DNA from: a virus
Lineage: Duplodnaviria > Caudoviricetes
DNA: 64,000 nucleotides
Strand: one strand, 5' to 3'
Virus record (IMG/VR): IMGVR_UViG_3300031992_000016
Location: 64,001-128,000 of that record
Shown one piece after another: positions 3,549 to 28,396 of this stretch. A program made the translations under genes and the position numbers. The notes beneath the pieces are model-generated. The model saw nothing but the letters and a program-made list of their open reading frames with translations, made no database searches and was not told the DNA's origin. Numbering within the stretch: position 1 is the stretch's first letter; every line of letters starts with the position of its first letter.

Positions 3549-4652
3549 ATGTATTATTATGACAAGGACGAAATCAAAAATAAACTCACTACTGATATGA
3601 TTTTTGAGTGTGTCCAGGATTGTGGCGGTTCTCCTAACCGCACCCCATTCGGCTTTATATCCGCCACAATCTGTCATAATAAATATGGAGAAGGTTCTCA
3701 CAAATTGTATTATTATGAGAATACTCGTTTGTTTAGATGTTATACAGGTTGTGACGCGACATTTGATATTTTTGAATTAATTACTAAAATTCATAAGATT
3801 AATCATCCGGAAGATACTGAATGGTCTTTGTATAGCTCAGTTTGTTGGGTAGCGCAAAAGTTTCATTTTGCTCCTACAAATACAGTAACAAAAGAAGCAG
3901 GTAAAGAATTACCAGAGTGGGGATTATTTGAACGGCGCGCACAATTTAAATTAACAGAAGAACAACCTCGTATTCAGTTACCAGAATTTCCAAAAACTAT
4001 TTTATATAATTTGCCACGCCCGATTGTTCCTGACTGGATAAATGAAGGCATGACGCAAGAAGCAATCAATCATCATATGATTGGTTATTATGCACCAACA
4101 GAGCAATTAACTATTCCGCACTTTGATATAGATGATAGATTTATAGGATTGCGCGGGCGAGCACTCGGTGAAGATGGTGCGCAATATGGTAAATATCGCC
4201 CAATGATGATTAGTGGTAGAATGTATAATCATCCATTGGGTTTAAATTTATATAATATTAATAATGCTAAAACCGCAATACAAAAGATACGTAAAGCAAT
4301 TATCTTTGAAGGCGAGAAAAGCGCCATTTTATATGAATCATATTTTGGACAAGAAAATGATATTTCTGTTGCGTGTTGCGGTTCTAACATTAGTAGTTAT
4401 CAAATTAAATTATTATTAGACCTCGGAGTGGAAGAAATTATTATCGCGTTTGATAGACAGTTTCAAACGCGAGGGGATGAAGAATTTAAACATCTAACTC
4501 GAAATCTAACTTCCATAAACAAAAAATATAGGCCGTATGTATTAATCTCTTTTATCTTTGATAAAACGGATTTACTGCCCTATAAAGCATCCCCAATAGA
4601 TTTAGGTAAAGACGTTTTTTTGAAGATGTTTAAGGAGAGAATTATTCTATGA
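3549..4652 (+). CDS. DnaG-like DNA primase
   Basis: Zn-binding CH...CYTGC, GLRGR, Toprim FEGEKS and IIIAFD. Confidence 0.85.
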   Translation: MYYYDKDEIKNKLTTDMIFECVQDCGGSPNRTPFGFISATICHNKYGEGSHKLYYYENTRLFRCYTGCDATFDIFELITKIHKINHPEDTEWSLYSSVCWVAQKFHFAPTNTVTKEAGKELPEWGLFERRAQFKLTEEQPRIQLPEFPKTILYNLPRPIVPDWINEGMTQEAINHHMIGYYAPTEQLTIPHFDIDDRFIGLRGRALGEDGAQYGKYRPMMISGRMYNHPLGLNLYNINNAKTAIQKIRKAIIFEGEKSAILYESYFGQENDISVACCGSNISSYQIKLLLDLGVEEIIIAFDRQFQTRGDEEFKHLTRNLTSINKKYRPYVLISFIFDKTDLLPYKASPIDLGKDVFLKMFKERIIL

Positions 4653-6400
4653 AATATAAGTTGATTAATGAACAAACATATAGTGATTGGATAGAACAGG
4701 TTTTACACAATCGTGGTTTAACTGATAGAGAGATACATCTTTATTTAAATCCATATGAGTCATTGGAGCACGATTGGCGTGAATTATCACATATAGGAGA
4801 TGCGGCGTATCAAGTAGCAATGGCAATCGCGCAGCAAAAGAAGGTATATGTACAAGTCGATTGCGACTGCGATGGCTATACCTCTGCCGCGGCACTATTA
4901 AATTATTTATGGTCATTATTTCCAGCTACTATTGAAAATAACTGGACGTGGGGACTTCATGCTAATAAAGAACATGGCATTGAAGTAGAAGCAGTAAAAA
5001 CATTAATCCCCTCTGGCTTACATATGGTAATTGCGCCTGATAGTTCAAGTAATGAGCATGACATACATAAAGAACTATTAAATGATTGGAATATTAAAAC
5101 AATAGTATTAGACCACCATGAAGCAACACCTGATGCAGAAGACCCCGCGTATATTGTAAATAATCAAATGTGCAATTATCCAAATAAAACATTAAGTGGC
5201 GTTGGCATTGTTTATAAATTCTGTGAAGCATTTGATGAGATGTTTGGTTTTAATAATCATACGCAGATTTTAGACTTAGTTGCTCTTGGTATGATTGGTG
5301 ATATGATGGATATGCGTTCATTAGAAACTCGATATTTAATTACTGAAGGTCTAGCATATCCGCAAAATCCATATTTTACTGGAATGTTAATGAAACAGCA
5401 ATACCAGCTGCAAGATAATTTTACGCCATTTAATATAGCATTTTATGTTGTGCCATATATTAATGCAATTACAAGAGTAGGAACACAAGAAGAAAAAGAA
5501 TTAATCTTTCAAGCATTATTAGATTTTAAAGCGCATAATTTAATTGTTTCTACAAAACGTGGTGACGCACCTGGGACTATGACTGAACTAGTAACACAAG
5601 CTGTGCGGGTGTGCGGCAATGTGAAGGCACGACAGGAACGAGAAAAGAAAGCAGTAATTGACCAATTAGATGATATGATTGTAAATAATCGTCTTACAGA
5701 TTATCCAGTGATTATTTGTGAGATGAAAGAACCAATAGATGCAAATCTCACTGGCTTAGTTGCTAACTATGTAATGGCTAAATACGGTAAGCCAACACTT
5801 ATTCTTAATTGGCGCGATGACCATTGGGCTGGTAGCGGTCGCGCATTTCCAATAGCCGAAGTAGAGAATTGGCGTAATTTTTTTGAGAACGATTGCTCAG
5901 TTATATATGCGCAAGGACATGCTAATGCTTTTGGTATCGCAATGACTGCGGAGCAATTACAAGAATTAAAACAGCAAATGAACACTTGGTCTTTTGTAAT
6001 TACTCCTATTCATGACGTTGATTTTGTATTTAATGCTAAATCTGAATTGTTGGTACATTGTATTAAACGTCTTACTGAACGCGGCGATTTGTGGGGACAA
6101 GGAGTAAGCGAACCAGAAATTTGTGTTGAGCATGTAAAAATAGATGCGAAACAAATTCATTTATTTTCTCCTGATAAAAAACCTACCATTCGTTTCGATT
6201 TGCCGCACAATATCGCAGGAATGATTTTTAATACAACGCAAACAGTATATGATAAATTAGTCAGTATGATACCTGAGATGGGTGCGATTGAATTAAGGAT
6301 TATTGGTAAGGCATCATTAAATAATTATAATGGGAATATTACACAACAAATCATAATCTCTGACTATGAAGTAACAAATGTGATAGACCTTGACTTTTAA
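4649..6400 (+). CDS. recJ: RecJ-like ssDNA exonuclease (DHH/DHHA1)
   Basis: DCDCDGYTS, LDHH, IGDMM, GSGR, GHANAFG motifs. Confidence 0.88.
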   Translation: MKYKLINEQTYSDWIEQVLHNRGLTDREIHLYLNPYESLEHDWRELSHIGDAAYQVAMAIAQQKKVYVQVDCDCDGYTSAAALLNYLWSLFPATIENNWTWGLHANKEHGIEVEAVKTLIPSGLHMVIAPDSSSNEHDIHKELLNDWNIKTIVLDHHEATPDAEDPAYIVNNQMCNYPNKTLSGVGIVYKFCEAFDEMFGFNNHTQILDLVALGMIGDMMDMRSLETRYLITEGLAYPQNPYFTGMLMKQQYQLQDNFTPFNIAFYVVPYINAITRVGTQEEKELIFQALLDFKAHNLIVSTKRGDAPGTMTELVTQAVRVCGNVKARQEREKKAVIDQLDDMIVNNRLTDYPVIICEMKEPIDANLTGLVANYVMAKYGKPTLILNWRDDHWAGSGRAFPIAEVENWRNFFENDCSVIYAQGHANAFGIAMTAEQLQELKQQMNTWSFVITPIHDVDFVFNAKSELLVHCIKRLTERGDLWGQGVSEPEICVEHVKIDAKQIHLFSPDKKPTIRFDLPHNIAGMIFNTTQTVYDKLVSMIPEMGAIELRIIGKASLNNYNGNITQQIIISDYEVTNVIDLDF

Positions 6401-12287: not shown

Positions 12288-14525
12288 ATGGGTTTAGAAA
12301 TTATAAAACGTAATGGTAATTTAGTTCCTTTTGATAAACAGCGTATTATTGATGCAATTAATAAAGCATTTATTGAAGTCGATGGAAAACTATTTGAAAC
12401 TGACACTTCACGTAGTATCGCTGATGATGTAGAAAAATATGTTGCAATGTAGGGCGAACCAATTCACGTTGAAGCAATTCAAAATATGATTGAGTTCTAC
12501 CTTATGCAAAGCGAACGTAGAGACGTTGCTAAGGCTTATATTCGTTATAGATATAAAAGAGAAATTGCACGTTCATATAACGCAGAGTTTATTGAAGAGA
12601 TTGGTAAGAAATTACAAGCAAAAAATATTGAAAATCAGAACGCGAATGTAGATGAACATTCATTTGGTGGCAGAAAAGGTGAAGCTACAAATTTGTTGAT
12701 GAAACAGTATGCGCTTGACTTTCTTATTAGTCCTCGTCACGCATATAATCACTTGCATAATCGTATCTATATCCACGATTTAGATGCCTATGCAGTTGGT
12801 ATGCACAACTGTTTATCAATTCCTTTTGATGATTTGCTTGCGAAAGGCTTTAATACGCGACAAACTGATATTCGTCCTGCAAACAGTATTAATACTGCTT
12901 TCCAACTTGTCGCTGTTATATTCCAGTTACAGAGCTTACAACAGTTCGGTGGCGTCTCAGCAACTCATTTAGATTGGACAATGGTTCCATATGTTCAAAA
13001 GTCATTTGCTAAACATTTTAAAAAGGGCTTGCGCTGGACTGAAAAAGCGCCTGCCGATTATATTGAAAATGTTCCTGATATGATACCTATTGAGTCACCT
13101 ATCGCGCAGGACTGGGTTAATGCTTATAAATATGCTATGGCTATGACAGAGCAAGAATTAAAGCAAGCCGTAGAAGGTATGTATCATAATCTCAATACTT
13201 TACAGTCACGCAGTGGCAATCAGTTACCTTTCACTTCTATTAATTACGGCACATGCACGCTTCCAGAAGGCCGTTTGGTTATTGAAGCATTATTGAATGG
13301 TTCTATTGATGGTGTAGGTAAATTACATCGTACTCCTATTTTCCCTTGCGGTATTTTCCAAATGATGAAGGGTGTTAATAGAACACCTCGTGACCCAAAT
13401 TATGATTTATATAGATTAGCATTGCAATCAACAGCAAAACGTTTATATCCTAACTATGCTAATGTTGATTGGAGCGGCAATGCCGGTTATGACCCAGCTG
13501 ATCCAAAAACTTATTTCAGCACTATGGGTTGCCGCACTAGTAATGGTTTAGATATAAATGCAGAACCTGGTACTAATCCTCAGACCAAAGATGGCCGTGG
13601 GAATATCTGCCCAGTAACTATCATTCTCCCTACTATTGCTATGGAAGCAAAAGCAGCGTATAAAGATGATAACATTACTAATGATACGATTATTGATTAT
13701 TTTATGAGATTTTTAGGCAGCGCCATTGAAGATGCAAGAGATTGTTTATTAGAACGTTTTGACTATATTTGTTCGCAATCTCCTGAATCTGCCAAATTTA
13801 TGTATGAAAATGGCACAATGCTCGGGTATCATCCAGAAGAAGGCATCCGTTCTGCTTTAAAACATGGTACAATTGTTATTGGTCAGCTCGGTTTGGCAGA
13901 GTGCTTGGAAATTTTAATTGGTAAAAACCAGACTACCGATGAAGGTATGGCTTTGGCCAAACAAATAGAACAATTATTTAAAGAGCGTTGTGCAGAGTAT
14001 AAGCAACAGTATAAATTAAATTTTGGTGTTTATTATACCCCTGCTGAGAATCTTTGCTATACTGCTATGAAATATTTCAAACAACAGTATGGTGAAATTA
14101 AAAATGTATCTGACCATGAATATTTTACCAATAGCATCCATGTACCAGTATGGGAGCATGTTGGTGTGCTTGATAAAATTGAAATTGAAAGTCAATTAAC
14201 TGGTTATAGTAATGCAGGTTGTATCACTTACGTAGAACTTGATAGCGGCATTGCTAATAACTTAGACGCTTTGGATTAGATTGTCCAGTTTGCTATGGAC
14301 AAAGATATTCCATATCTTGCTATTAATGTTCCTAATGACACTTGTTTAGAGTGTGGTTATACTGGTGAATTTAATGATAAATGCCCGATGTGTGGCAGCA
14401 CGCATTTACAGCAATTGCGGCGTGTTACTGGTTATTTAACTGGCGATTATAAAACCGCATTTAACTGGGGCAAACAAAAAGAAACAGAAGCAAGAGTAAA
14501 ACACGTTAATGAATTAAAGGAGTGA
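12288..14525 (+). CDS. nrdD: anaerobic ribonucleoside-triphosphate reductase, 745 aa, 2 in-frame TAG
   Basis: ATP cone (MGLEIIKRNG...) from ATG 12288. TAG at 12450 and 14277 join the track ORFs in one frame through the CLEC/CPMC Zn site and the RVTGYL glycyl-radical motif to TGA. Confidence 0.93.
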
Positions 14526-14529
14526 GAAC

Positions 14530-15012
14530 ATGCGCTACGCAGGAATTATATATGATGATACCGCCGCAGCGCCGGGTTTAAGTCTCACATTCTTTACCCA
14601 AGGTTGTCCTATTCATTGCCCGGGTTGCCATAACCCGGGCACTTGGGACCCAGATGGCGGACGTGAATTTACACCAGAAGTATTAAGTAGAGTATTAGAT
14701 GGACTTACTAAAAATGGTGTAACTCGTAATTTTTGTATTATGGGCGGAGAACCGTTAGCTCCATATAATGTTTTTCTTACACATCTATTGGTAAAAACAG
14801 TAAGAGAAAAATATCCGCAAATTCAAATTTATTTATGGACTGGTTATACATTGGATCAAGTAAAAGAAAATGCAAAGAGCAATCCACATATTGACGCAAT
14901 TCTATCTAATATAGATTGCATCATTGATGGACCATTCATTCAATCACAACGTGATATTACATTATTTATGCGCGGTAGTGCCAATCAAAGAATTACATAT
15001 TTGACGGAATAA
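14530..15012 (+). CDS. nrdG: anaerobic RNR activating radical SAM protein
   Basis: CPIHCPGC, GGEPL, DGPF, RGSANQR; directly follows nrdD. Confidence 0.93.
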   Translation: MRYAGIIYDDTAAAPGLSLTFFTQGCPIHCPGCHNPGTWDPDGGREFTPEVLSRVLDGLTKNGVTRNFCIMGGEPLAPYNVFLTHLLVKTVREKYPQIQIYLWTGYTLDQVKENAKSNPHIDAILSNIDCIIDGPFIQSQRDITLFMRGSANQRITYLTE

Positions 15013-17678: not shown

Positions 17679-17729
17679 AAAAAAATAAAGGGACGTAGAT
17701 AAAAAATCTACGTCCCTTTATTTTTTTTT
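17677..17729. terminator. bidirectional terminator between convergent operons
   Basis: A-run-TAAAGGGACGTAGAT/ATCTACGTCCCTTTA-T-run perfect inverted repeat. Confidence 0.9.
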
Positions 17730-18138
17730 ACCCTACAACAGGTGTTTTCTTTTCATTAACCAATGATTCAATATATGCCTTAGTGAATAGATCAAAATCA
17801 CCTACGACCGCGGTTAGATACTGCTTAGCATCTTCACTTAATACTGTAATTACGCTATTGTAAGTTAATTGAAATGCTTCTTTCTGTGCTTCCGCAGTGA
17901 AAGCATTTTTATTCTTTAAAGCATTAACATAAGTTTGGTTCGTCATTTCTACGCAACGAGCAACTGTATCTTCAAACATACTTAAATACTTGTAATATAC
18001 AGTATCCTCTTGACCAGCTTTATAATTGTCGATCTTTGCGCGAACCCACTTAACAAAATAAGTAGTCAATATCCCCAAAAAAGGAATGATAACTAACTTA
18101 AAAATCTCATTTAAAATTTCAGCCCAATTCATTGTCAT
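17728..18138 (-). CDS. putative holin (LL-H-like, single N-terminal TM)
   Basis: GGAGG RBS before MTMNWAEIL...; TM LVIIPFLGILTTYFV; TNQTYVNALK; last gene of the lysis cassette. Confidence 0.65.
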   Translation of the reverse strand: MTMNWAEILNEIFKLVIIPFLGILTTYFVKWVRAKIDNYKAGQEDTVYYKYLSMFEDTVARCVEMTNQTYVNALKNKNAFTAEAQKEAFQLTYNSVITVLSEDAKQYLTAVVGDFDLFTKAYIESLVNEKKTPVVG

Positions 18139-18475
18139 AATCCTCCGAATTATCTTCTTCGTTATTATCACTAATTGCTGCTGCATCTTGTATTTCTTTG
18201 TATGTTTCACTTATCTTTTTATAATTCTCAATACCTGCTTTTGCAGTATAACCCAAACGTAAGGAAACATATACTGTTGTTACACCAGCCAAGGCGCTTG
18301 AACCAAAAGATGCTAATCCTTGATTAATAACAACAATAGCAAGAATTGCCAAGAGTGATACAGCATATACGACAATATCTATAATAGTAAGTCGCTTACT
18401 CCATTCAAGCGGTCGCTGTTGTCGCTTTCGCTAATTTTTGGAGCGCTGCTACTAATTCTTTTGCTTCTATCTCAC
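18119..18475 (-). CDS. two-TM lysis-cassette membrane protein, 118 aa, 4 TAG in first 15 codons
   Basis: AAGGTGG RBS, GTG 18475: VR*KQKN**QRSKN*RKRQQRPLEWSKRLTIIDIVVYAVSLLAIL...AKAGIENYKKI; overlaps the lysin 3' end. Confidence 0.6.
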
Positions 18476-19823
18476 TTGAACACGCCACCTTTACATACCA
18501 AGATTTTGGTGTATCAGGTGTGGTAGGTTCAACAGGCACAGATACAGGAATTAAAAATTCATTCATCATATATCCGGTCTGTCCGTTATACATAATGCGG
18601 TCCCATTCAGTGCCATGATCAATAATATCAACAATAGTCCCAGTTGATATTTTTGCTATTACACCAAAATTAGTGCCCGCGCCAGAACGCATACGCACTG
18701 TCGTGCCGCTTTTTGATTTTACTGTTGCCTAGTATAACACTGATAAAACCTCCCCTTCTGATGTACCAGCATTTGCTAGTTCTTCTGGTGTATATAAACC
18801 CGCGGGGATTGCATAGTGCGTCCAGCCATATGTACCTAATTCTTGACGTTTAACGCCAGACTTGCTACCAGCTGCATGCATAAAAGTGCCATCGCCCAGA
18901 TAAACACCAGTATGTGACATTGGATTAGATGTTGGTGATTCATGATATAAAGCACAAATCTTATCTTTTGGCATCTAATCAATTGGTCCTTTTCGCACCC
19001 AGATACTTGATTTCCATTGTGAAGATGCGCCAGATACTAAGGAAATACCAATTTGCGCGAAGCATAACTTCGTAAATCCTTGGCAATCATAAACCTACTT
19101 ACCGAGCCACTTCTTTACAATGTTATAATCAACTTTGTCTGGATATTGAGCAATACGCGCACGAATAAATTGTTCGGTTGCAATTTGTCCTTGAGCACCA
19201 TAGATATAACCACAACCTTCTTTACTTAACGCATACTCTCTGATTACTTTCTCTTTCTCCTATGAGGTCATTACTTCAAATACCTCCTTTACTACTGCAC
19301 CAGGATAATAAAATTGTAAAATATCCTAATATGTAAAGCCCATATTTGCCATCTTCTTTGCGCCAACTTGGCTCATACCAACACAATGTCCATTGCGCGC
19401 AGTAGTTGTATAGGGGTCATCTTTACTAACTAGCCAAGCGCGTTCTCCACCCCAGACTTCTTTAGAGCTTTTTATATGTCCGCCATTGCTAGAAGAGAAA
19501 GGCACTGGGCTACATAAAGTGTTTTTATATGTTAAAACTAATGCATTAGTTGCTTCAACACAACGATAAGTAGCAGCATAAGCATTATCAATTGATCTCG
19601 AATATCGATATGCCTAATGCTTAGCGCTATTATCTGTCATATTTTTAATAGTATAAGCATTAGTTCGTGCGGCAATTGCTTGGGCTTTTACAGCTTCATC
19701 CGGCCCATTCATTTCACTAGGAACACAACCTAGCAAATATGTTTCTGGATGAATATTGATCGTGTCATTAACATTAACGCCCCAAGCTTCCGCATTACTT
19801 TCTCTTGTTAAAGTTAATCTCAT
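18405..19823 (-). CDS. endolysin: SpoIID/LytB + NlpC/P60 + SH3b, 472 aa, 6 in-frame TAG
   Basis: YLLGCVPSEM, EAVKAQAIAART, H*AY, GHCVGMSQVGA (SpoIID); YIYGA, DCQGF, HTGVY, MHA (NlpC/P60); VRMRSGAGTNF...GYMMNEFL (SH3b). Single frame to TGA. Confidence 0.9.
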
Positions 19824-20983
19824 TATAATTTCTCCAATAAAAGCGCCCATTGCGCATGTGTTATGGGGGTTTCAACTTCATCTATATTATCTGGGATTTC
19901 ATAATTTTCATTACGCCCTTGCAATTGATGCATTAATATATCGTAATGGTTCTACGTAATTGGAATGTCATAATCCCAATCCAAAGTGTTAATAGCTGGC
20001 ATAATGGCTGCCATTTGCGCACTTTCTTGTGTTAATCTATTAACATGGCCGATAAACTAACGACATAATGTATATGCAGTCATTAAGTCATCAATCTAAA
20101 ACATAGTTTCATTCTCATCTTCTAATGTATCAATAAAAACAAAAGAAGCGCTTCGATAGAATTCATTTGATGTATCTAATGAACAACCTGCTGAACCAAC
20201 TATTTTAGAGTCTAAAACTGCACATACTTTAACATATAATGAAGGTGTTGTGTTAATTTCATTATAGTTTTTTGTACCAAGAAACGATGTTAAAGGAACA
20301 ATCATAGATGTCTAATTTGTACGTTCCGTATCAATCCAACCTAAAGAAACTAATTCTCCACTGTTTGGAGTTAATAATGTTTTATCATTAGGCCCAGCAA
20401 ATACACCCACAGAATAATGATCAATTGTACCAGTAAAATTTTCTGGTGGAGACCAGCGCACCGCTACACGATTATAATACTAAGGCCATACTTCTATTTC
20501 TACTGGCGCTGGAATAGAAGTATCAATAGTTAAACTACGATAGTAAATACGTACATCTACATAACTAATAATAATCGTTCCATTAATTGCGTAAGGCCAA
20601 AATGTAATCTAAAAAGTTTGGCTTGTCTTATTAGTCAAACCTGTTATTTCATATTCATAACTGCCAAACGTTGAACCATTAATATTGCGAACTGGAAACT
20701 CTGAACTTTCTAAATAGTTAGTCCCGAAACCAACTCGTCCTTTACAATTCATTTCATAGTTAAAATCAATAACAGCTTTTGTAATTTCAACTCCGCCAGG
20801 AGGAGGATTACGTAATGTACAATTAATAGAAATAGTAGTGCCGCAGAATTGTAATTCTTCAACTGCTGCGGCCTGTGGAACATGTATATAAGTCGCCGGA
20901 GTTTCGGCGCACTATGAACTACTTTTAATTGGTTGCCCAGATGCTATGGGATAATATGTATATTTACAATTTACATTCGCCAT
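19823..20983 (-). CDS. hypothetical protein with FN3-like segment, 386 aa, 7 TAG
   Basis: Open in code 15 from ATG 20983 to TAA 19823 (TAATG coupling to the lysin); VRWSPPENFTGTIDHYSV resembles FN3. Confidence 0.65.
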
Positions 20984-21006: not shown

Positions 21007-21345
21007 TTATTCACCATCATCTGCGTCTAAATCTTCACTAGAAGAAAAATTAACATACATTTCAAAATTGTCTCCACCATTGTATGTTTCTTGAATAGAT
21101 GTAATTCTACCTTGAACATCATTTAAATCATAAATATTATTACCACTATCACCTTTAATAGTAATACGAGAAACAGTCTGTGGCATTAAAGTATTCAAGA
21201 AAGTGGCGGTACTTGCACCAGGAACCAAACTAATATAAGCATTGCTTACTAAATCATTCTGTTCCTTGTCATATGTAGTAGTACGACTATAATTTACGAG
21301 TTGAATAGCATGAGCTGCGTCACTATTAAAAATAATTGTTGCCAT
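21007..21345 (-). CDS. hypothetical acidic-tailed protein, 112 aa
   Basis: AAGGAGGT RBS before MATIIF; no TAG. Confidence 0.7.
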   Translation of the reverse strand: MATIIFNSDAAHAIQLVNYSRTTTYDKEQNDLVSNAYISLVPGASTATFLNTLMPQTVSRITIKGDSGNNIYDLNDVQGRITSIQETYNGGDNFEMYVNFSSSEDLDADDGE

Positions 21346-21358
21346 TAAAATGACCTCC

Positions 21359-22342
21359 TTATAAATTACCAAATAATAGTATATAACTATCATCTATTGT
21401 ATTTATATCAGTAGCGCTCGCCCAGCACCATACTGACATAATCGCATTAAATAACATATCTTTATTTGTCTATGTTATCTAATTATCTTTAAGTAATTGG
21501 CCTACTCTTTTATCAAAATTTGACCGTAAAATTTTTTCATCATAACCATCTTTATTTTTTCGCATCTAACAATCCCATAATTTTCCATCACAATCAATAG
21601 TGAATGAATCAATGCCTGCCATACAATGCGGAGTTTGTTTAGGTACTTCTATGGTTCCAAACCATTTATAATAATTCTCTGCATCATAACCGAAATAACG
21701 ACCAGGCACTTCAATGGTCGGCTTTGCACCGATATCATCAATATTAATATATGGTCTTTTTTCTACTAAAGGTATCATTTTATCATGTAATTCCTACGCC
21801 CATGCATACCAAACTGTAGAGTCGGTGCGCAAATTAATTTTAGTTAATGTCGATTTAGTAGATATTTTTAACTAAAAATTATTGGTCGGCATTTTCGTTG
21901 GGCAAGAATAAATTAAATGCTCTAGCGCGCGGATTGAATTTTTATACGCACCTTTCTAACGATTAAAATCATTCATATCTTCTGGACCATCAATATTAAA
22001 TTGGATATGTAATGTTACATCATATGATAATAATGGCATGACGAAATAACGGTATAATTCTGATGTACCGTTTGTAGAAAACATAATATTTTTGATTTGC
22101 GGCCATCGCTTTAAAATTGCAGTAATCATTGCTGAAAAATATGGTCCATTAAGTGATGGCTCCATTCCCCATAATCCAATACTGGTAGTTTCTGGGGTGA
22201 TAGTTTCAAGAATGGTTTTTGTAAATGAACCATTCTTGAAACACTCCTAAATGCGTTTATTATCATGCTCTTGATATTGCATACAACAATAAGCACATTT
22301 TAAATTACATGCATCGGAAAAATAAATGTTAAGATTTTTCAT
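21359..22342 (-). CDS. radical SAM protein with Twitch/SPASM-like auxiliary motif, 327 aa, 7 TAG
   Basis: CNLKCAYC at residues 12-19, WGMEP, STNG, NIDGP, C-terminal C-x12-G-x4-C (CMAGIDSFTIDCDGKLWDC). Confidence 0.88.
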
Positions 22343-22433
22343 CTTTTATTTGCACTCCACATAAAGCATTACATAAAACATTACAAAACGAAGTTTCTGT
22401 AATATTTTGATTATTATCTTCTTGCCAACGCAT
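22329..22433 (-). CDS. 34-aa Cys-rich peptide (Cx3Cx3C), candidate rSAM substrate
   Basis: AAGGTGA RBS; MRWQEDNNQNITETSFCNVLCNALCGVQIKDEKS; starts 2 nt after the tail-fibre stop and overlaps the rSAM start by 14 nt. Confidence 0.65.
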   Translation of the reverse strand: MRWQEDNNQNITETSFCNVLCNALCGVQIKDEKS

Positions 22434-22435
22434 TT

Positions 22436-25400
22436 TTATTTCACCTTAATCCATATTCTATTATTTACAGGAACTGCCTTTTCACCCCAAATTGTGTATT
22501 CAGGTACTTCACTAACATAGCCTATAATACAATCAGGATACTAAACAATCTCTTCTCTTGTCATAATATCTATCGTACCATTAGGAGCAGCACATACTGC
22601 CATACCAGCGTGATAATTTGTTCTATCTTGATATGTATATACTAGAACACGACCAGCAACAGCCACTGGTGTTTTAGCCGTTTCAGTTTCACCTTGCGCA
22701 AAACCATAGGTATCAGATACAATAGAAGCGCCTGGTATTAGACGTTCTTCTGTACGAGTCATAATACCATTGTCATTTTCTTGTACGCAACGTCCAGCTT
22801 CTAATTCTGTCGTGCAACGATATTCCGCATAGTCATTCCAAGCAGCGCCCATTAAAACGCCAGCAGATAAATCAGAATAAATTGCACTACTGCCCAAATA
22901 TAAACATGCTTTACTACTAGCATTAGCACGCCAAATTATAGCATCTGTAGTTGGATTTGCAGAAGGACCTGTAAAAACTAATTGTTTTCCTCTTCCAACT
23001 GTTATATTTTCAGTTGATGTAATACCAGCTGCCGTTAAAGCACCTGCAGATGATATATATGCACCTGCTGAAGCACATGGTACAATATTAGTTTGCTCTG
23101 CACTACCGCTTGGTGTGGTAGGCGTACCCAATAAATACGCTGTCCAAGTTGGTGATGTGGCAACTTTAACATTAACAAATTTATCAGTAGTAGTTATCTA
23201 TGCCCATGTTGGCTCACCACTACCATTTGATTTTAAATAATAGTTCTTAGTACCAGCACTAGTAGGAGCGTAGAAACTAGCTGATGTAGTTGCTGTACCA
23301 TTTAATGTGACAGTACTTCCATCGCCCCATTCAGGCACACTAGCACCCATTTTTAAGAATTTACCAGCCGCACCTTTACCTAAACGTGTTGGTGTATTAG
23401 CAGCAGACCAATAAATTATATCACCTGCGTGAGTACCAATAGATTTAGGAATTGCATAGTCAGAAAAATTTAACTAATCTAATACATTAACCCAACCGCC
23501 ATTAGTAGTGCTATTTTGAAGAGCACCACCTGCTACGCGTTTATAATAAATACCATTTGCATTAAATGGAATTGCGAGGTCAGTATAATAACCAGAATTA
23601 TTTGCATGATTACATCTAATAATATGAGTCCAAGTAGCACTAGAAAATGGAGTATCATTTACTTTAACTGCTCCCTATCTAGCAGCACTAATATTGAAAT
23701 ATTGTAAGCCATTCCAACCATAGTCCATACGTGTATTGCTACTTAATTGCGTTGATGTAGTTGCAGTTGTAGCATTACCAGACAAAGTACCAGTAATTGT
23801 GTATCCACCAGTAATTGTTTTAGCATATGGATCAATAACTAATGCAGTACCGACACCAGTTTTTGTCGTTCCATCAGCAGATGCAATACCAAAAATACGG
23901 AAATTACTATTTAAATTATCTAAAACAATACCCGCTTTTGTTGTTGCATTTGCGGCAGCACATAAATGAAGTTCTCCACCTTCGCCAGAGCCATCTGGTT
24001 TAATATCTATAGTACCATTGAAATAGCTTGGTCCAGCAACAGTTAAGTTATATGATGAATTAAAGTTACTATTAACAGCCAATCGAGAAGTAGCTTTAAT
24101 ACCATTGGTTCTAAAAGCGGCGCCTCTACTTTCAGATGTTATAAGTCCAATAGTAAAATCAAATAATGAATCTGCTGAAGTATTATATCTGTCACCAATA
24201 AAATATGCTTTTTGGCTACCATCATTAAAAATTAATTTTGGGCCACCTAATGATTCATTATAAGCCGCTGTTGCACCTGTATCTGATCCAGAGACAGTTC
24301 CAGTTATCATAACATTGCCATTAAATGTAGTACCAAGTGTATTATAGTCTATTGATATTGCATTTTTTGAATATGTAGTTTGCGCAGATGTAGTATAATT
24401 AGTATTAAACTATAATAAACCAGATGTATTCAAAATCTACCAAGACGCACTAGAATTACGATAAAACTCAAGACCTACGGCAGCTGTTCCAGCACCTTTT
24501 AAAACTAATTTACCAGTTTGCGTAGTAGTAGATGAATTATCTGCACCATCAATTAATAAACCAGTGGTTGTTGCAGTAATGCGCGCGCTATAATCAGCAG
24601 TGCTAGTATTTGTTGCGTGGAAATCAATATATTTACCAATTTCCATTACACCATCAGAGCCAATTAATGGCGTACCTCTAAAATAAGCACCAGCTGCTGG
24701 GGCTAAATTAGATCTATAATTACTTAAACCAAGAATGGTCGCTCCGTTGGTTTCATCTAAAATGCGGCGCCAAGATTGCCAAGTGCCATTATTTTTACCG
24801 CGCACACTTAACTGTCCAGTTCGATAATCCTAAAAAATTTCTGTTATCCAAGAATTATTATACCACTGTGAAATTAATGCACCATCTGTCTATTGATAAT
24901 TCCAAGCAGCTTTAGTCAAGCCAGATACATAGCCTAGTGCATTAGTGCCAGGGCCATTACCATCAATACCAAGATTTGTGCTTGTGGTAACTTTAAAATT
25001 AGTTAAATTAGATGCGGTGGTAGAAGTATCAGAACTATTAGCATGATTAACTGTGCCACCATCTACTGCAACAGTTACATCATCATATGCAATCGCTCCA
25101 ATACTTGTAGTAACATCAGGATAAACTTCAATAGATGTTTTTTTATCATCCGCTGTTGTATTATTTACTTCCGTACTTGCAAGCAATGTCCATGCATAAT
25201 TAGCACCTTCTAATAAGTATGCATATGCACGCATATAAGTACCACATTTTACATACACATCACATTGCGCAGATTGACCAGAAGCACCTTTACGAGCAAT
25301 TCTAACATCACCAACTGCAAAACCATAACGCACTATCCAAGTAGCGCTTACTGAAGTTGCTGCTGGCGGGTCTGCACTAGCATTATTAGCACGAGCAGAA

Positions 25401-28396
25401 ATTTTAATAACGCCGTATTTACCACCAGAGTATCGAGAATGTATAAATAAAATTGCATCTCTATCAACATATGAACCAGTTCCTAAATTAGTAGTAGCTA
25501 CACGATGCCAAGGATAATGATTAGTATTACCAGAATTAACAGTAACATAATTATGATACCAAGTTAATGCTGTTGGAGTACCATTATTAAGATAAATACC
25601 TCTACACTCACTGCCAACTGTTGTTGTACCTAATTTAGATGCTGCACCAGTCAAATTACCAACAAAACCATTAGTTGCAGTTACGCTGCCTGGGAAAGTG
25701 CTATTACCACTAGTATCAAATAATTTAATTTCTTTAGCAACTATATTAGAAGTATTGTAACGTCTAACTACAATCTATTCGTTATTACCATCATCGCCAA
25801 CAGCAATTTCTAATAAACCAGCATTCGCGGTTTCTTCTAAATGACGAATCCAACCAGCATCATTATTTCCATTACCATTTAATGGGTCAGCAAATGCAAT
25901 AGCGTTACTATAAATAAATACACCACGCTTATTACTATTATAAGGTAGTTTATCTGGCATACCAGATGTAAGAGCCATACGAATATGGTTTCCTCCCGCT
26001 GCGGAACCACCTTGTACCCACAACCCACCTGTCTAAATCGTTGTTGCACCATTGATAAATAAAACACTACCATCTGTTTGTTCTGCGTGCTAACCAATTG
26101 TTAATTTAGGTACTGATATACGCACACCAGTTGCAAGCGTAGTTCCAGTTGGAGCATGCAAACGTATATTACCTTCTGAATTATAAGACTTAGCATTGTC
26201 AGTAACACCAATGTAACAATAGCTTAAACTATTTGCAGAACCAAAATTACCAAAATTACTTAAAATAGATGTTTTATCATTTTTATAAGCATCAAATACT
26301 GTCCAAGCCCAACCGCCACCGCCATCTTTAACACGAGAACTAAAAAATTGACTAGTATTTTCTGAGCCATAAAACTAAGATGTACCTAAAGTTTTATAAG
26401 TTTCGCTTAAATCCCCAACATATGATGCGGCAATAGCAGAACCGTGCCAAGTACCAGCAGTAATAGTACCAACTTTTGTAATTTCAGTTAAATTTTTTTC
26501 TGTTATAATTCTATAATTCTTATTAGCAGTCAAACCAGTAGCAACTGTTGGTAAATAATATGTTTCATAATAACCGGTAGTAGTAGTCGTAGCAGGATTA
26601 TTAGGACTATATTGACGCCAATTCCATATGCCTGTTGTTACATTAGTTGCATCACCTACATCATACCAGGTTTCAGCTACTCTATTAAGAGCATTATTTC
26701 GTAATACTATATCTTTGATATAACGAGAAGTCGAACCCCAATAACCATATCCACGTACATCTAGTACATAGTTACCAACTAACGGTGCCATAGTAGTAAT
26801 AGCATTATCTTGATTAATTGTAAATAAAGCATTTGATTTAGTTGAGCCATGATTATGCAACCAAATGCCTCGATTACCAGTATCTGTCCCAGCACTATAT
26901 AAATAAATGTCACCAGCATTGCTTTGTGCTTTTACATTAATTTCTTTGCCTGATGTTGTTCTACCAGCAACAATATGAGAATTAGTATGTATTTGTTTTG
27001 TTACGCCTAAACCGCCACCAATACGAACTGCCCCGTTATTATAGTCAGTAGCATCTTGAGTATATTGTATATTGACTATATTACCCGCTGTGGCATCACC
27101 ATAGCCCATAATAATCGGGCCACCGTTTATATTTAAATATAGTCCTTGTTCTGATTCATTAACTTCAGTTCCACGATTACCATCTGAATCACAACCAGAA
27201 ATTCCACGGACAATTAAAGCATTTGAACCAGCAGAACCAATAATATGCACACTGCCAGTTAAATACGATGCCGCGCCAGTGGCAATACCACCACCAACTA
27301 CTAATGCGCCAGTTGTAGAAGAAGTTGATGCCGTAGTGGCTTTAATTTTTACTGTACCCGCTTTATTAATTGTTAATAATCCATTATTACCATAAAGCCC
27401 TAATCCAACTGCATTTTCTGCATTGTTAGAACCATAATAATGGAACTCAAGTACTGCCTAATTATTAGAACCATTACTCACACCTGTCATTAAGCATGTG
27501 TTACCACCGCTAGCTAAATTAGGAACTAAATGATTAATACCCCAAGAATAAGTACCACTTTTCACCACAGTTGCTGGCGCGTTTGAGGTTAAATTAATCA
27601 TACCTTTTGCGGCACTATCTGTGGCATTTGGATTATATTCTACTGTAGTTTGACCAGTGAATAACGCTCCGCCATTTTCATAAAAACGAATTTGTGCATC
27701 TGTTCTTGCAGTTGTACCATTATAAGTTGTATCTTTAACATAACTAAATAATAAATCATCTGTATATGAAGAATCTGTATAGGAACCAATTTCCCAAGAT
27801 CCATTACTAGTTTTTGTTGATACTACTGGTGAATAACCAGGAATTGAAGTTATTGCAATCAAAGCATTATCTCTGCCTTTATGCCAAGAAGATGCAATAC
27901 CAGCTCTTGTAATAATATGACTTGTAATAAATTTAGAACCATCCCAAGTTAAAGAACCACCTGATAACTTATTCGTTTGATTATAGGTAGTAAATAGTAA
28001 TCGAGTATTACCATTTAAACCCTAAATTGCTAATGTCCCCGCGCTATTGACGTCACCCATTTGGGCATCATCACCGACTTTATTCCATGTGTTATTAGCG
28101 AAATTCAATGCGCCGGTCATAGTCCCGCCAGCCAATGGTAAATATTTATTAACTCCTAATGCGGTAATCATATTGGCCTTACTAACCCAGTAAGTTTTGC
28201 CACCATTTGCAAATGAATCAATCGCAAGAAAAAATTCTGCGGCGCTACCTTTTTCTGGTAATGCTACATTATCTTTCCAGCTTAATGGCGCGGTCATCTA
28301 ACCGCCTTCTATAATTTGCGGTTTAAGAGTAGTAGTATAGAGCGTATCAGTTACTCTGGCGCTCCCTTGTATCAATGTATCTTTTAATTGTGCCAA
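22436..28396 (-). CDS. giant tail fibre (~1986 aa) with C-terminal intramolecular-chaperone/autocleavage-like domain
   Basis: AAGGAGG + TTG start; eight track ORFs share this frame and each ends at TAG; YLPLAGGTMTG fibre motif; C-terminal WNDYAEYR...GRVLVY. Confidence 0.8.

Follow-up and report, generated by a model that had tools for sequence, protein, structure and literature searches.

Within virus record IMGVR_UViG_3300031992_000016 (168,960 bp, with direct terminal repeats), we analysed bases 64001-128000, a stretch of 64,000 nucleotides that is called the window throughout and whose own numbering is used below. Its late operon contains a micropeptide open reading frame (micro-ORF) of 34 codons, placed directly between a tail-fibre gene and the gene of a radical S-adenosylmethionine (SAM) enzyme. 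The two genes are read here as a late-operon module in which the micropeptide would be the substrate of the adjacent enzyme, thioether crosslinks being the favoured product, and we give this reading somewhat better than an even chance. That the peptide is a substrate of the enzyme at all, summed over the two chemistries considered below, ranges from that same level up to fairly probable. The existence of both genes, the conservation of their linkage, and the class and motifs of the enzyme are established; we infer the substrate relation, the type of bond and the role of the product. The pairing of enzyme and substrate is favoured because the linkage is conserved, peptide and enzyme identities co-vary, the peptide is absent from its usual site in the clade that includes both homologues without the catalytic motif, and the enzyme belongs to a crosslinking class. 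The pair is found again in distant relatives and hence probably represents a peptide-modification system, encoded by a virus and so far undescribed.

The late genes are encoded on the minus strand, and their reading frames stay open only when TAG is read as sense. TAG was taken as Gln by assumption, and the alignments of homologues are compatible with Gln. A tRNA with a CUA anticodon is present in the genome (G000:C1:37355-37447, outside the window); at 93 nt it is longer than the other 32 phage tRNAs. The elements of the pair are as follows.

22329-22433, minus strand: micro-ORF, 34 codons, with Cys at residues 17, 21 and 25; it has its own Shine-Dalgarno sequence and the same position as in relatives

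22442-22447, minus strand: Shine-Dalgarno hexamer of the micro-ORF, within the last fibre codons; the layout is the same in the related locus L005

21359-22342, minus strand: radical SAM enzyme, 327 codons with 7 in-frame TAG, supported by motifs, homologues and predicted fold

The fibre stop is followed by 2 nt and then by the ATG of the micro-ORF, which runs from 22433 down to 22329. The Shine-Dalgarno hexamer is purine-rich and lies 8 nt 5' of this ATG, and the final 14 nt of the micro-ORF overlap the enzyme start. All three Gln codons of the micro-ORF are CAA. An earlier note on this DNA, made from the letters alone, had described a micro-ORF with its own ribosome-binding site directly after the fibre stop, an overlap with an enzyme gene holding 7 TAGs, a CxxxCxxC motif at residue 12, a C-x12-G-x4-C motif and Gln encoded by CAA only; its coordinates and each of these details were confirmed. 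The note had also regarded the enzyme as gated by the genetic code; such gating would not be specific to this gene, as TAG codons occur in most of the late genes of the phage. The peptide contains two tandem Asn-x-x-Cys units, and when its core pattern was searched among the 1065 small ORFs (18-45 codons) of the 169-kb genome, the micro-ORF itself was the single match; it is thus more than a chance occurrence.

The enzyme ORF (22342 down to 21359) is open only if its 7 TAG codons are sense. Its product carries Cys-x3-Cys-x2-Cys at residues 12-19 and Cys-x12-Gly-x4-Cys at residues 240-258. In an alignment (A4) of 12 catalytic homologues, the cluster Cys residues are invariant. Of the SAM-binding Gly/Glu/Pro strand, Gly59 and Pro62 do not vary and Glu61 hardly does. 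Cys240, Cys258 and Cys306 are kept by all 15 homologues of a 15-sequence alignment; the only further Cys of the C-terminal half is Cys251. The cluster motif and fold-comparison Z scores of 17-18 place the protein in the radical SAM superfamily. In Pfam it matched Fer4_12 with 26 bits (cut-off 22), and PF04055 with 24.4 bits, which is under the cut-off of 29.5; the PHROG match was PHROG 1802, a generic 'radical SAM domain' family. The Cys-x9-15-Gly-x4-Cys pattern of Twitch domains is present, and the single auxiliary cluster that it would bind is putative. The seven-Cys SPASM pattern, which includes Cys-x2-Cys-x5-Cys-x3-Cys, lacks its second half here, and Pfam, scanned up to an E value of 1, reported no SPASM domain in the enzyme. 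Because three Cys are invariant and the second motif is absent, the C-terminal domain is better described as Twitch-like than as a full SPASM. The earlier note had proposed a SPASM/Twitch peptide-modifying enzyme; fold and Twitch motif bear out the class, but not a full SPASM domain.

Forty-five NCBIfam families matched the enzyme, all through its N-terminal core and all far under their cut-offs. The best of them was PapB (NF047865; 49.7 bits against a cut-off of 340, E 3e-13, profile positions 4-149 only), and the peptide lacks the Cys-x3-Asp repeat of PapB substrates, so that the pair falls outside the PapB family. Scores were similarly short of the cut-offs for the Twitch subfamily NF033640 (27 bits against 170) and the anaerobic sulfatase-maturating enzyme (anSME) family TIGR03942 (30.5 bits against 349). 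Among the cyclophane families XyeB, YhhB and GrrM, YhhB scored 25 bits against 445. A system of the SCIFF/CteB type was not recognised either, since the RiPP recognition element (RRE; RiPPs are ribosomally synthesised and post-translationally modified peptides) and the second auxiliary motif are absent and the target has 2-3 Cys rather than six in 45 residues. Nothing in the genome matched the CXXX-repeat maturase TIGR04115 at E values up to 1; the link to the CXXX-repeat family drawn in the earlier note is therefore not upheld.

The AlphaFold (AF2) model of the enzyme has a pLDDT of 90.3. Its full-length structural neighbours were ChlB (Z 18.3, 269 residues aligned), anSME (Z 17.5) and CteB (Z 17.4, also the best Foldseek match), followed by SuiB and SkfB at Z 14.6 each. 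The alignments to CteB, SuiB and SkfB start past their N-terminal recognition domains, in CteB from residue 93; together with a cluster motif at residue 12, this agrees with the suggestion of the earlier note that no N-terminal RRE is present. The only solved protein reached by a sequence profile search was anSME (E 2.7e-6, radical SAM core). Given the motif and alignment pattern, the fold matches and the family scores below cut-off, the enzyme, as modelled, is a recognition-domain-less, Twitch-like member of the peptide-modifying branch, outside every curated family. When the complex of a 95%-identical orthologue with the window peptide, two clusters and SAM was predicted, the score was 0.03, a value that weighs neither for nor against binding.

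A search of 1.84 billion representative proteins returned 11 proteins with E <1e-30, mostly full-length (~330 residues), and beyond them a broad uncharacterised set of radical SAM proteins of 440-480 residues that match residues 1-231 only. P0007, a partial protein of 178 residues, shares 66% identity with residues 1-149 of the window enzyme. DNA was retrieved for 12 relatives, of which 11 need TAG as Gln and one contains no TAG. The enzyme gave no match by tblastn against 50,697 phage records, two scans of viral contigs, among which records close to the window's own genome may be lacking, found no relative, and a scan of bacterial genome contigs gave only radical SAM genes of other families at 22-29% identity. 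The family was found only in uncultured, TAG-recoded phages.

A micro-ORF with a Cys-x3-Cys core was present in 12 of the 14 related loci that keep the catalytic motif, down to an enzyme identity of 32%. In eight of these loci (L003, L007, L008, L009, L011, L013, L014 and L016; enzyme identity 32-39%), an ORF of 20-27 codons occupies the same place, each with its own Shine-Dalgarno sequence and a stop that overlaps the enzyme start. The earlier note had named the loss of the peptide ORF or of its Cys spacing beside enzyme orthologues as the outcome that would speak against the pair, and both were found to be kept. As to the definition of RiPPs, peptide and enzyme are co-encoded in these 12 of 14 loci, and the modification of the peptide is putative. 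Furthermore, peptide identity and enzyme identity co-vary (r = 0.60), and a relaxed form of the core pattern, searched among ~1,220 small ORFs of the related loci, fits only these micro-ORFs, two extra matches being longer in-frame starts of the L010 ORF.

The usual form of the peptide is a leaderless chain of ~20-27 residues that starts with Met-Cys; it contains two Cys and ends in an acidic tail with a Trp. Its pattern begins with Met-Cys (or a few residues and then Cys), x, x, Leu/Met, Cys, x, x and Leu/Phe, usually followed by an aromatic residue; an acidic run comes second, and Trp, Phe/Tyr and Asp/Glu/Asn come last. The Cys-x3-Cys core of the window peptide aligns with 10 other peptides, its first two Cys falling on the family Cys pair and its third on the aromatic position of the family. 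Since the relatives differ, the three-Cys form and the 'polar leader' are features of the window lineage and not of the system. Of the three Cys spaced by four that the earlier note had emphasised, the Cys-x3-Cys unit is thus conserved and the third Cys is not, and the polar, leader-like N-terminus that it had described is likewise lineage-specific.

The 11 enzyme-adjacent micro-ORFs all have their own Shine-Dalgarno sequence. In nine loci, 8-41 nt are shared between the end of the micro-ORF and the enzyme start, and the acidic codons also serve as the Shine-Dalgarno sequence of the enzyme, as would be expected if the micro-ORF were only a cis-acting upstream ORF that sets enzyme translation and its peptide had no function. 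However, the amino-acid pattern of these micro-ORFs is conserved while their codons vary synonymously. Moreover, a motif scan of small ORFs located the micro-ORFs of L004 and L010, which are coupled to other structural genes and precede the enzyme by 2 kb and 0.8 kb, respectively; their peptides keep both the Cys core and the acidic Trp tail away from the enzyme start. The acidic tail is therefore not just the ribosome-binding site of the enzyme, and L004 and L010 largely refute a purely regulatory upstream ORF, which we regard as scarcely credible. In L010 (2315-3991), paralogous fibronectin type III proteins of 263 and 265 residues flank the micro-ORF, and the peptide stop overlaps the start of the second paralogue.

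L015, the only locus of a motif-less homologue, has no micro-ORF in 4 kb upstream or 1 kb downstream of the enzyme gene, and L006, which is sister to two motif-less homologues on the enzyme tree, has no peptide at the usual post-fibre site. For this clade, peptide absence is covered by DNA from L006 and L015, P0029 being represented by protein only. Two proteins, P0016 and P0029, have lost the N-terminal cluster motif and kept the three C-terminal Cys. The motif-less homologue of L015 lies at 4001-4984, and an ORF of 71 residues resembling rubrerythrin is found just downstream.

The following mechanism is proposed for the enzyme-substrate pair. The N-terminal 4Fe-4S cluster of the enzyme would cleave SAM. 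A single auxiliary cluster, held by the three invariant Cys ligands, would bind a peptide Cys at its free iron site, and one intramolecular crosslink per Cys, most probably a thioether, would be formed. No leader or recognition domain would be needed, the acidic Trp-containing segment serving as the handle. The product would be made late with fibres and lysis proteins, and would either stay with the tail apparatus or be released at lysis. In the structure of CteB, the first auxiliary cluster reportedly has an open site for a substrate Cys. A thioether from Cys is favoured because CteB and NxxcB are both proposed to bind the substrate Cys at an auxiliary cluster; NxxcB is reported to form Asn-to-Cys beta-thioethers via Cys chelation to the auxiliary cluster and to tolerate other acceptor residues (PMC9389541). 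By analogy with NxxcB, each of the two Asn-x-x-Cys units of the window peptide is a candidate site.

Several observations weigh against an enzyme-substrate pair with thioether chemistry, and they are given here with the alternatives that draw on them. The first concern the copy in the window. It lacks the acidic Trp tail and so departs from the family norm, and its only Trp-x-acid unit sits in a 16-residue N-terminal extension. Compared with L005, whose enzyme is 95% identical and which carries the same 34-codon ORF, the micro-ORF shows 6 non-synonymous and 3 synonymous codon differences, against 16 and 47 in the enzyme and 1 and 27 in the fibre end. In addition, L002, the nearest outgroup and sister to the window lineage on the enzyme tree, has no micro-ORF at the site. 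Judged from these comparisons, the window copy is a derived, weakly constrained, lineage-specific and fast-evolving member of the family. The same observations would be expected if the 34-codon ORF of this lineage were a decaying or non-functional remnant, the enzyme being an orphan or having another job. However, none of the 6 amino-acid changes between the window and L005 affects a Cys, the core is unchanged save for one Val/Ile swap, and the start, the Shine-Dalgarno sequence and the enzyme overlap are kept in both; the enzyme itself is under purifying selection. A remnant is considered quite improbable.

Second, L002 and L006 keep an intact enzyme without a micro-ORF at the canonical site, where a promoter-like spacer is found instead; the upstream sequence covered is 447 nt for L002 and 155 nt for L006. 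Near-consensus sigma-70/extended -10 promoter-like elements were seen at 394-447 in L002 and 79-155 in L006, and upstream of the micro-ORF in L011, L014 and L016. These elements lie between the fibre stop and the peptide or enzyme, and the window has no such spacer. Since they precede the peptide or the enzyme, the module may be its own transcription unit in several relatives.

Third, the linkage of the micro-ORF to the fibre gene is about as tight as its linkage to the enzyme. The neighbours of the pair in the window are listed below.

22436-28396, minus strand: tail fibre of 1986 residues, an ORF

22439-22888, minus strand: conserved C-terminal 150 residues of the fibre, 43-62% identical across loci

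21007-21345, minus strand: 112-residue protein like tail-tube proteins and Hcp in predicted fold, a neighbour in 9 loci

between the 112-residue protein and the lysin, minus strand: 386-residue protein with a fibronectin type III domain

18405-19850, minus strand: lysin with SpoIID, NlpC/P60 and SH3 domains

17728-18210, minus strand: holin

17680-17726: strong terminator, after the holin

The order on the minus strand is fibre, micro-ORF, radical SAM enzyme, 112-residue protein, 386-residue protein, lysin, holin and terminator. In the fibre-to-holin interval no terminator or promoter stood out, and for this reason the pair is apparently co-transcribed with the tail and lysis genes. Among the neighbouring genes, no leader, protease, exporter or immunity gene was seen.

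All neighbours of the pair are tail or lysis proteins, and the enzyme may thus have a virion protein as its target, either the fibre C-terminal domain or the tube-like 112-residue protein, in which case the micropeptide would be a fibre-associated accessory or would become covalently coupled to the fibre. The last 150 residues of the fibre are more conserved than the enzyme; they contain one invariant Cys in a Val-Cys-x-x-Pro context, and they gave no Pfam or PHROG match. The peptide follows this domain directly in 9 of the 12 peptide-bearing loci, including L004 with its enzyme 2 kb away. L002 and L006, with an enzyme and no adjacent peptide, both have the tube-like protein. This protein belongs to a family of ~105 residues that follows the enzyme in nine loci; it matched no Pfam family, and its Atlas model reaches TM scores of 0.61-0.71 to Hcp and tail-tube models. 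On the other side, neither the fibre nor the tube-like protein has a Cys array. The tube-like protein is missing from L003, L008 and L014, and the window copy is free of Cys. In L008 and L014, peptide and enzyme stand behind other tail proteins without this fibre domain, and the CXXX-repeat maturase family, as stated, had no match. A virion protein as the target of the enzyme is accordingly judged unlikely.

Two further candidates around the pair were rejected. The 112-residue protein was considered as a stand-alone PqqD-like recognition domain; since its Atlas model resembles tail-tube and Hcp folds, it is a structural protein and not a recognition domain. A Cys-ladder virion protein was considered as the substrate, but no Cys-ladder or Cys-array protein is encoded in the whole genome, and TIGR04115 is absent as well.

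As for the product of the enzyme-substrate pair, we favour a role at the tail, given the structural genes around the pair and the close linkage to the end of the fibre; a free peptide released at lysis is just as possible. A more specific version is a stapled micropeptide in the adsorption apparatus, which the enzyme would crosslink internally or couple to the fibre C-terminal domain; we put this forward as a doubtful but defined possibility. If it were true, recoded phages would chemically harden or cap the tip of the tail fibre by radical chemistry. To our knowledge, no radical-chemistry modification of the virion of this sort has been described for any virus.

The fourth group of observations bears on the type of bond. 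Trp-x-Asp/Glu/Asn occurs in 12 of 12 peptides, in the window within the N-terminal extension. The top fold neighbour, ChlB, is a multiple cyclophane synthase, and triceptides are defined by an aromatic-x-x motif (PMC11499958). Asn occupies the putative acceptor position of Asn-x-x-Cys in only 7 of 12 peptides, Pro, Leu or Thr being found in the others. The peptide could accordingly be a substrate whose chemistry centres on Trp, yielding either a three-residue cyclophane, in which a carbon-carbon bond joins the indole to the side chain of the second residue after it, or an aromatic-acid link of the PqqE kind, with the Cys pair serving only for binding to the auxiliary cluster. Since the Trp unit is universal and ChlB is nominally the best fold, a Trp-centred cyclophane is the main rival chemistry. 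However, ChlB, anSME and CteB lie within 1 of each other in Z score, the second half of the SPASM motif is missing from the enzyme, and the curated cyclophane families score ~25 bits against cut-offs of ~445. Moreover, the Trp codon lies inside the enzyme-start overlap in most loci, and is free of it only in L004, L010 and the window. The present data are compatible with both thioether and cyclophane chemistry; Trp-centred chemistry seems to us rather unlikely.

The thioether-forming pair was then set beside known systems. The streptococcal NxxcB/NxxcA system resembles it in placing a small Cys peptide beside a radical SAM enzyme; the tandem pair of Asn-x-x-Cys units in the window peptide has its counterpart there, and Asn is found at that position in 7 of 12 family peptides. 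Chelation of Cys to the auxiliary cluster has been proposed for it (PMC9389541). However, NxxcB was not among the sequence matches listed, the acceptor here is Asn, Pro, Leu or Thr, the pair is phage-borne without the context of a quorum-sensing regulator, and the usual peptide is leaderless. PapB, the maturase of PapA (freyrasin), is the best NCBIfam match by its N-terminal core only, and CteB, the maturase of the SCIFF peptide CteA, is the best Foldseek match. Unlike these ranthipeptide maturases, the enzyme has neither the second auxiliary-cluster motif nor a recognition domain, and unlike PapA and CteA the peptide has neither Cys-x3-Asp repeats nor a SCIFF pattern.

The sactipeptide maturase SkfB (Z 14.6) likewise forms thioethers with a Twitch rather than a SPASM domain, and the thuricin CD peptides, made by the sactipeptide maturases TrnC/TrnD, carry three Cys spaced four apart, as the window peptide does. 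However, the precursors of SkfA and thuricin CD have leaders and long acceptor arms, and their enzymes have recognition domains, whereas the family described here conserves only two Cys in peptides of 20-27 residues. The CXXX-repeat system, with TIGR04115 as maturase and TIGR04114 as targets, shares Cys at every fourth residue, but the target here has 2-3 Cys and no long ladder. Triceptides share with the family the aromatic-x-x unit, Trp-x-acid/amide, in every peptide, and ChlB is the top fold neighbour; the invariant Cys pair has no counterpart in the triceptide motifs (PMC11499958).

The likeness to anSME is one of full-length fold (Z 17.5) and of sequence profile. In the profile search, a weak, non-significant stretch also aligned the Gly-x4-Cys segment of the window enzyme with a Cys-containing anSME segment, whose Cys we take to be a ligand of the first auxiliary cluster. 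Unlike in anSME systems, there is no second auxiliary cluster, no Cys/Ser-x-Pro-x-Arg motif in the peptide and no sulfatase nearby.

Radical SAM peptide maturases are a main source of new peptide chemistry, and almost all are known from bacterial gene clusters, which use leader peptides, recognition domains, proteases and exporters. By comparison, the pair described here would be a new form of radical SAM peptide maturation, apparently leaderless, recognition-domain-less, limited to a single auxiliary cluster and found in phages only. In the literature, neither this family nor any pairing of a radical SAM enzyme with a peptide in the tail module of a lytic phage was found described; such an absence does not prove novelty. 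An active pair would be among the smallest enzyme-substrate pairs for radical peptide crosslinking, and one would then ask what use a lytic phage makes of the modified peptide: it could be a part of the virion, help lysis, act as a signal or be an antimicrobial. Neither gene is picked up by standard gene callers, the peptide being too short and the enzyme being interrupted by TAG codons, and such systems are therefore missing from current RiPP censuses.

Other radical SAM genes were encountered during the analysis. The genome has a single further radical SAM match, an ORF of 160 residues (14530-15012, plus strand) directly after an ORF of 745 residues (12288-14525); it looks like the activase of an anaerobic ribonucleotide reductase. 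A second radical SAM gene of 433-436 residues lies ~4.6 kb downstream of the first one in L004 (13627-14937) and on a 184-kb contig. It follows a gene for a CBM_5_12-domain protein and an ORF of 92 residues, and it belongs to the uncharacterised set of 440-480 residues. In L020 (3348-5164), on a Waltera hominis contig, the arrangement is a classical bacterial one: a Cys-rich ORF of 77 codons lies directly upstream of a radical SAM enzyme of 478 residues, which has an N-terminal extension and the full C-terminal Cys motif and shares only 22% identity with the phage enzyme.

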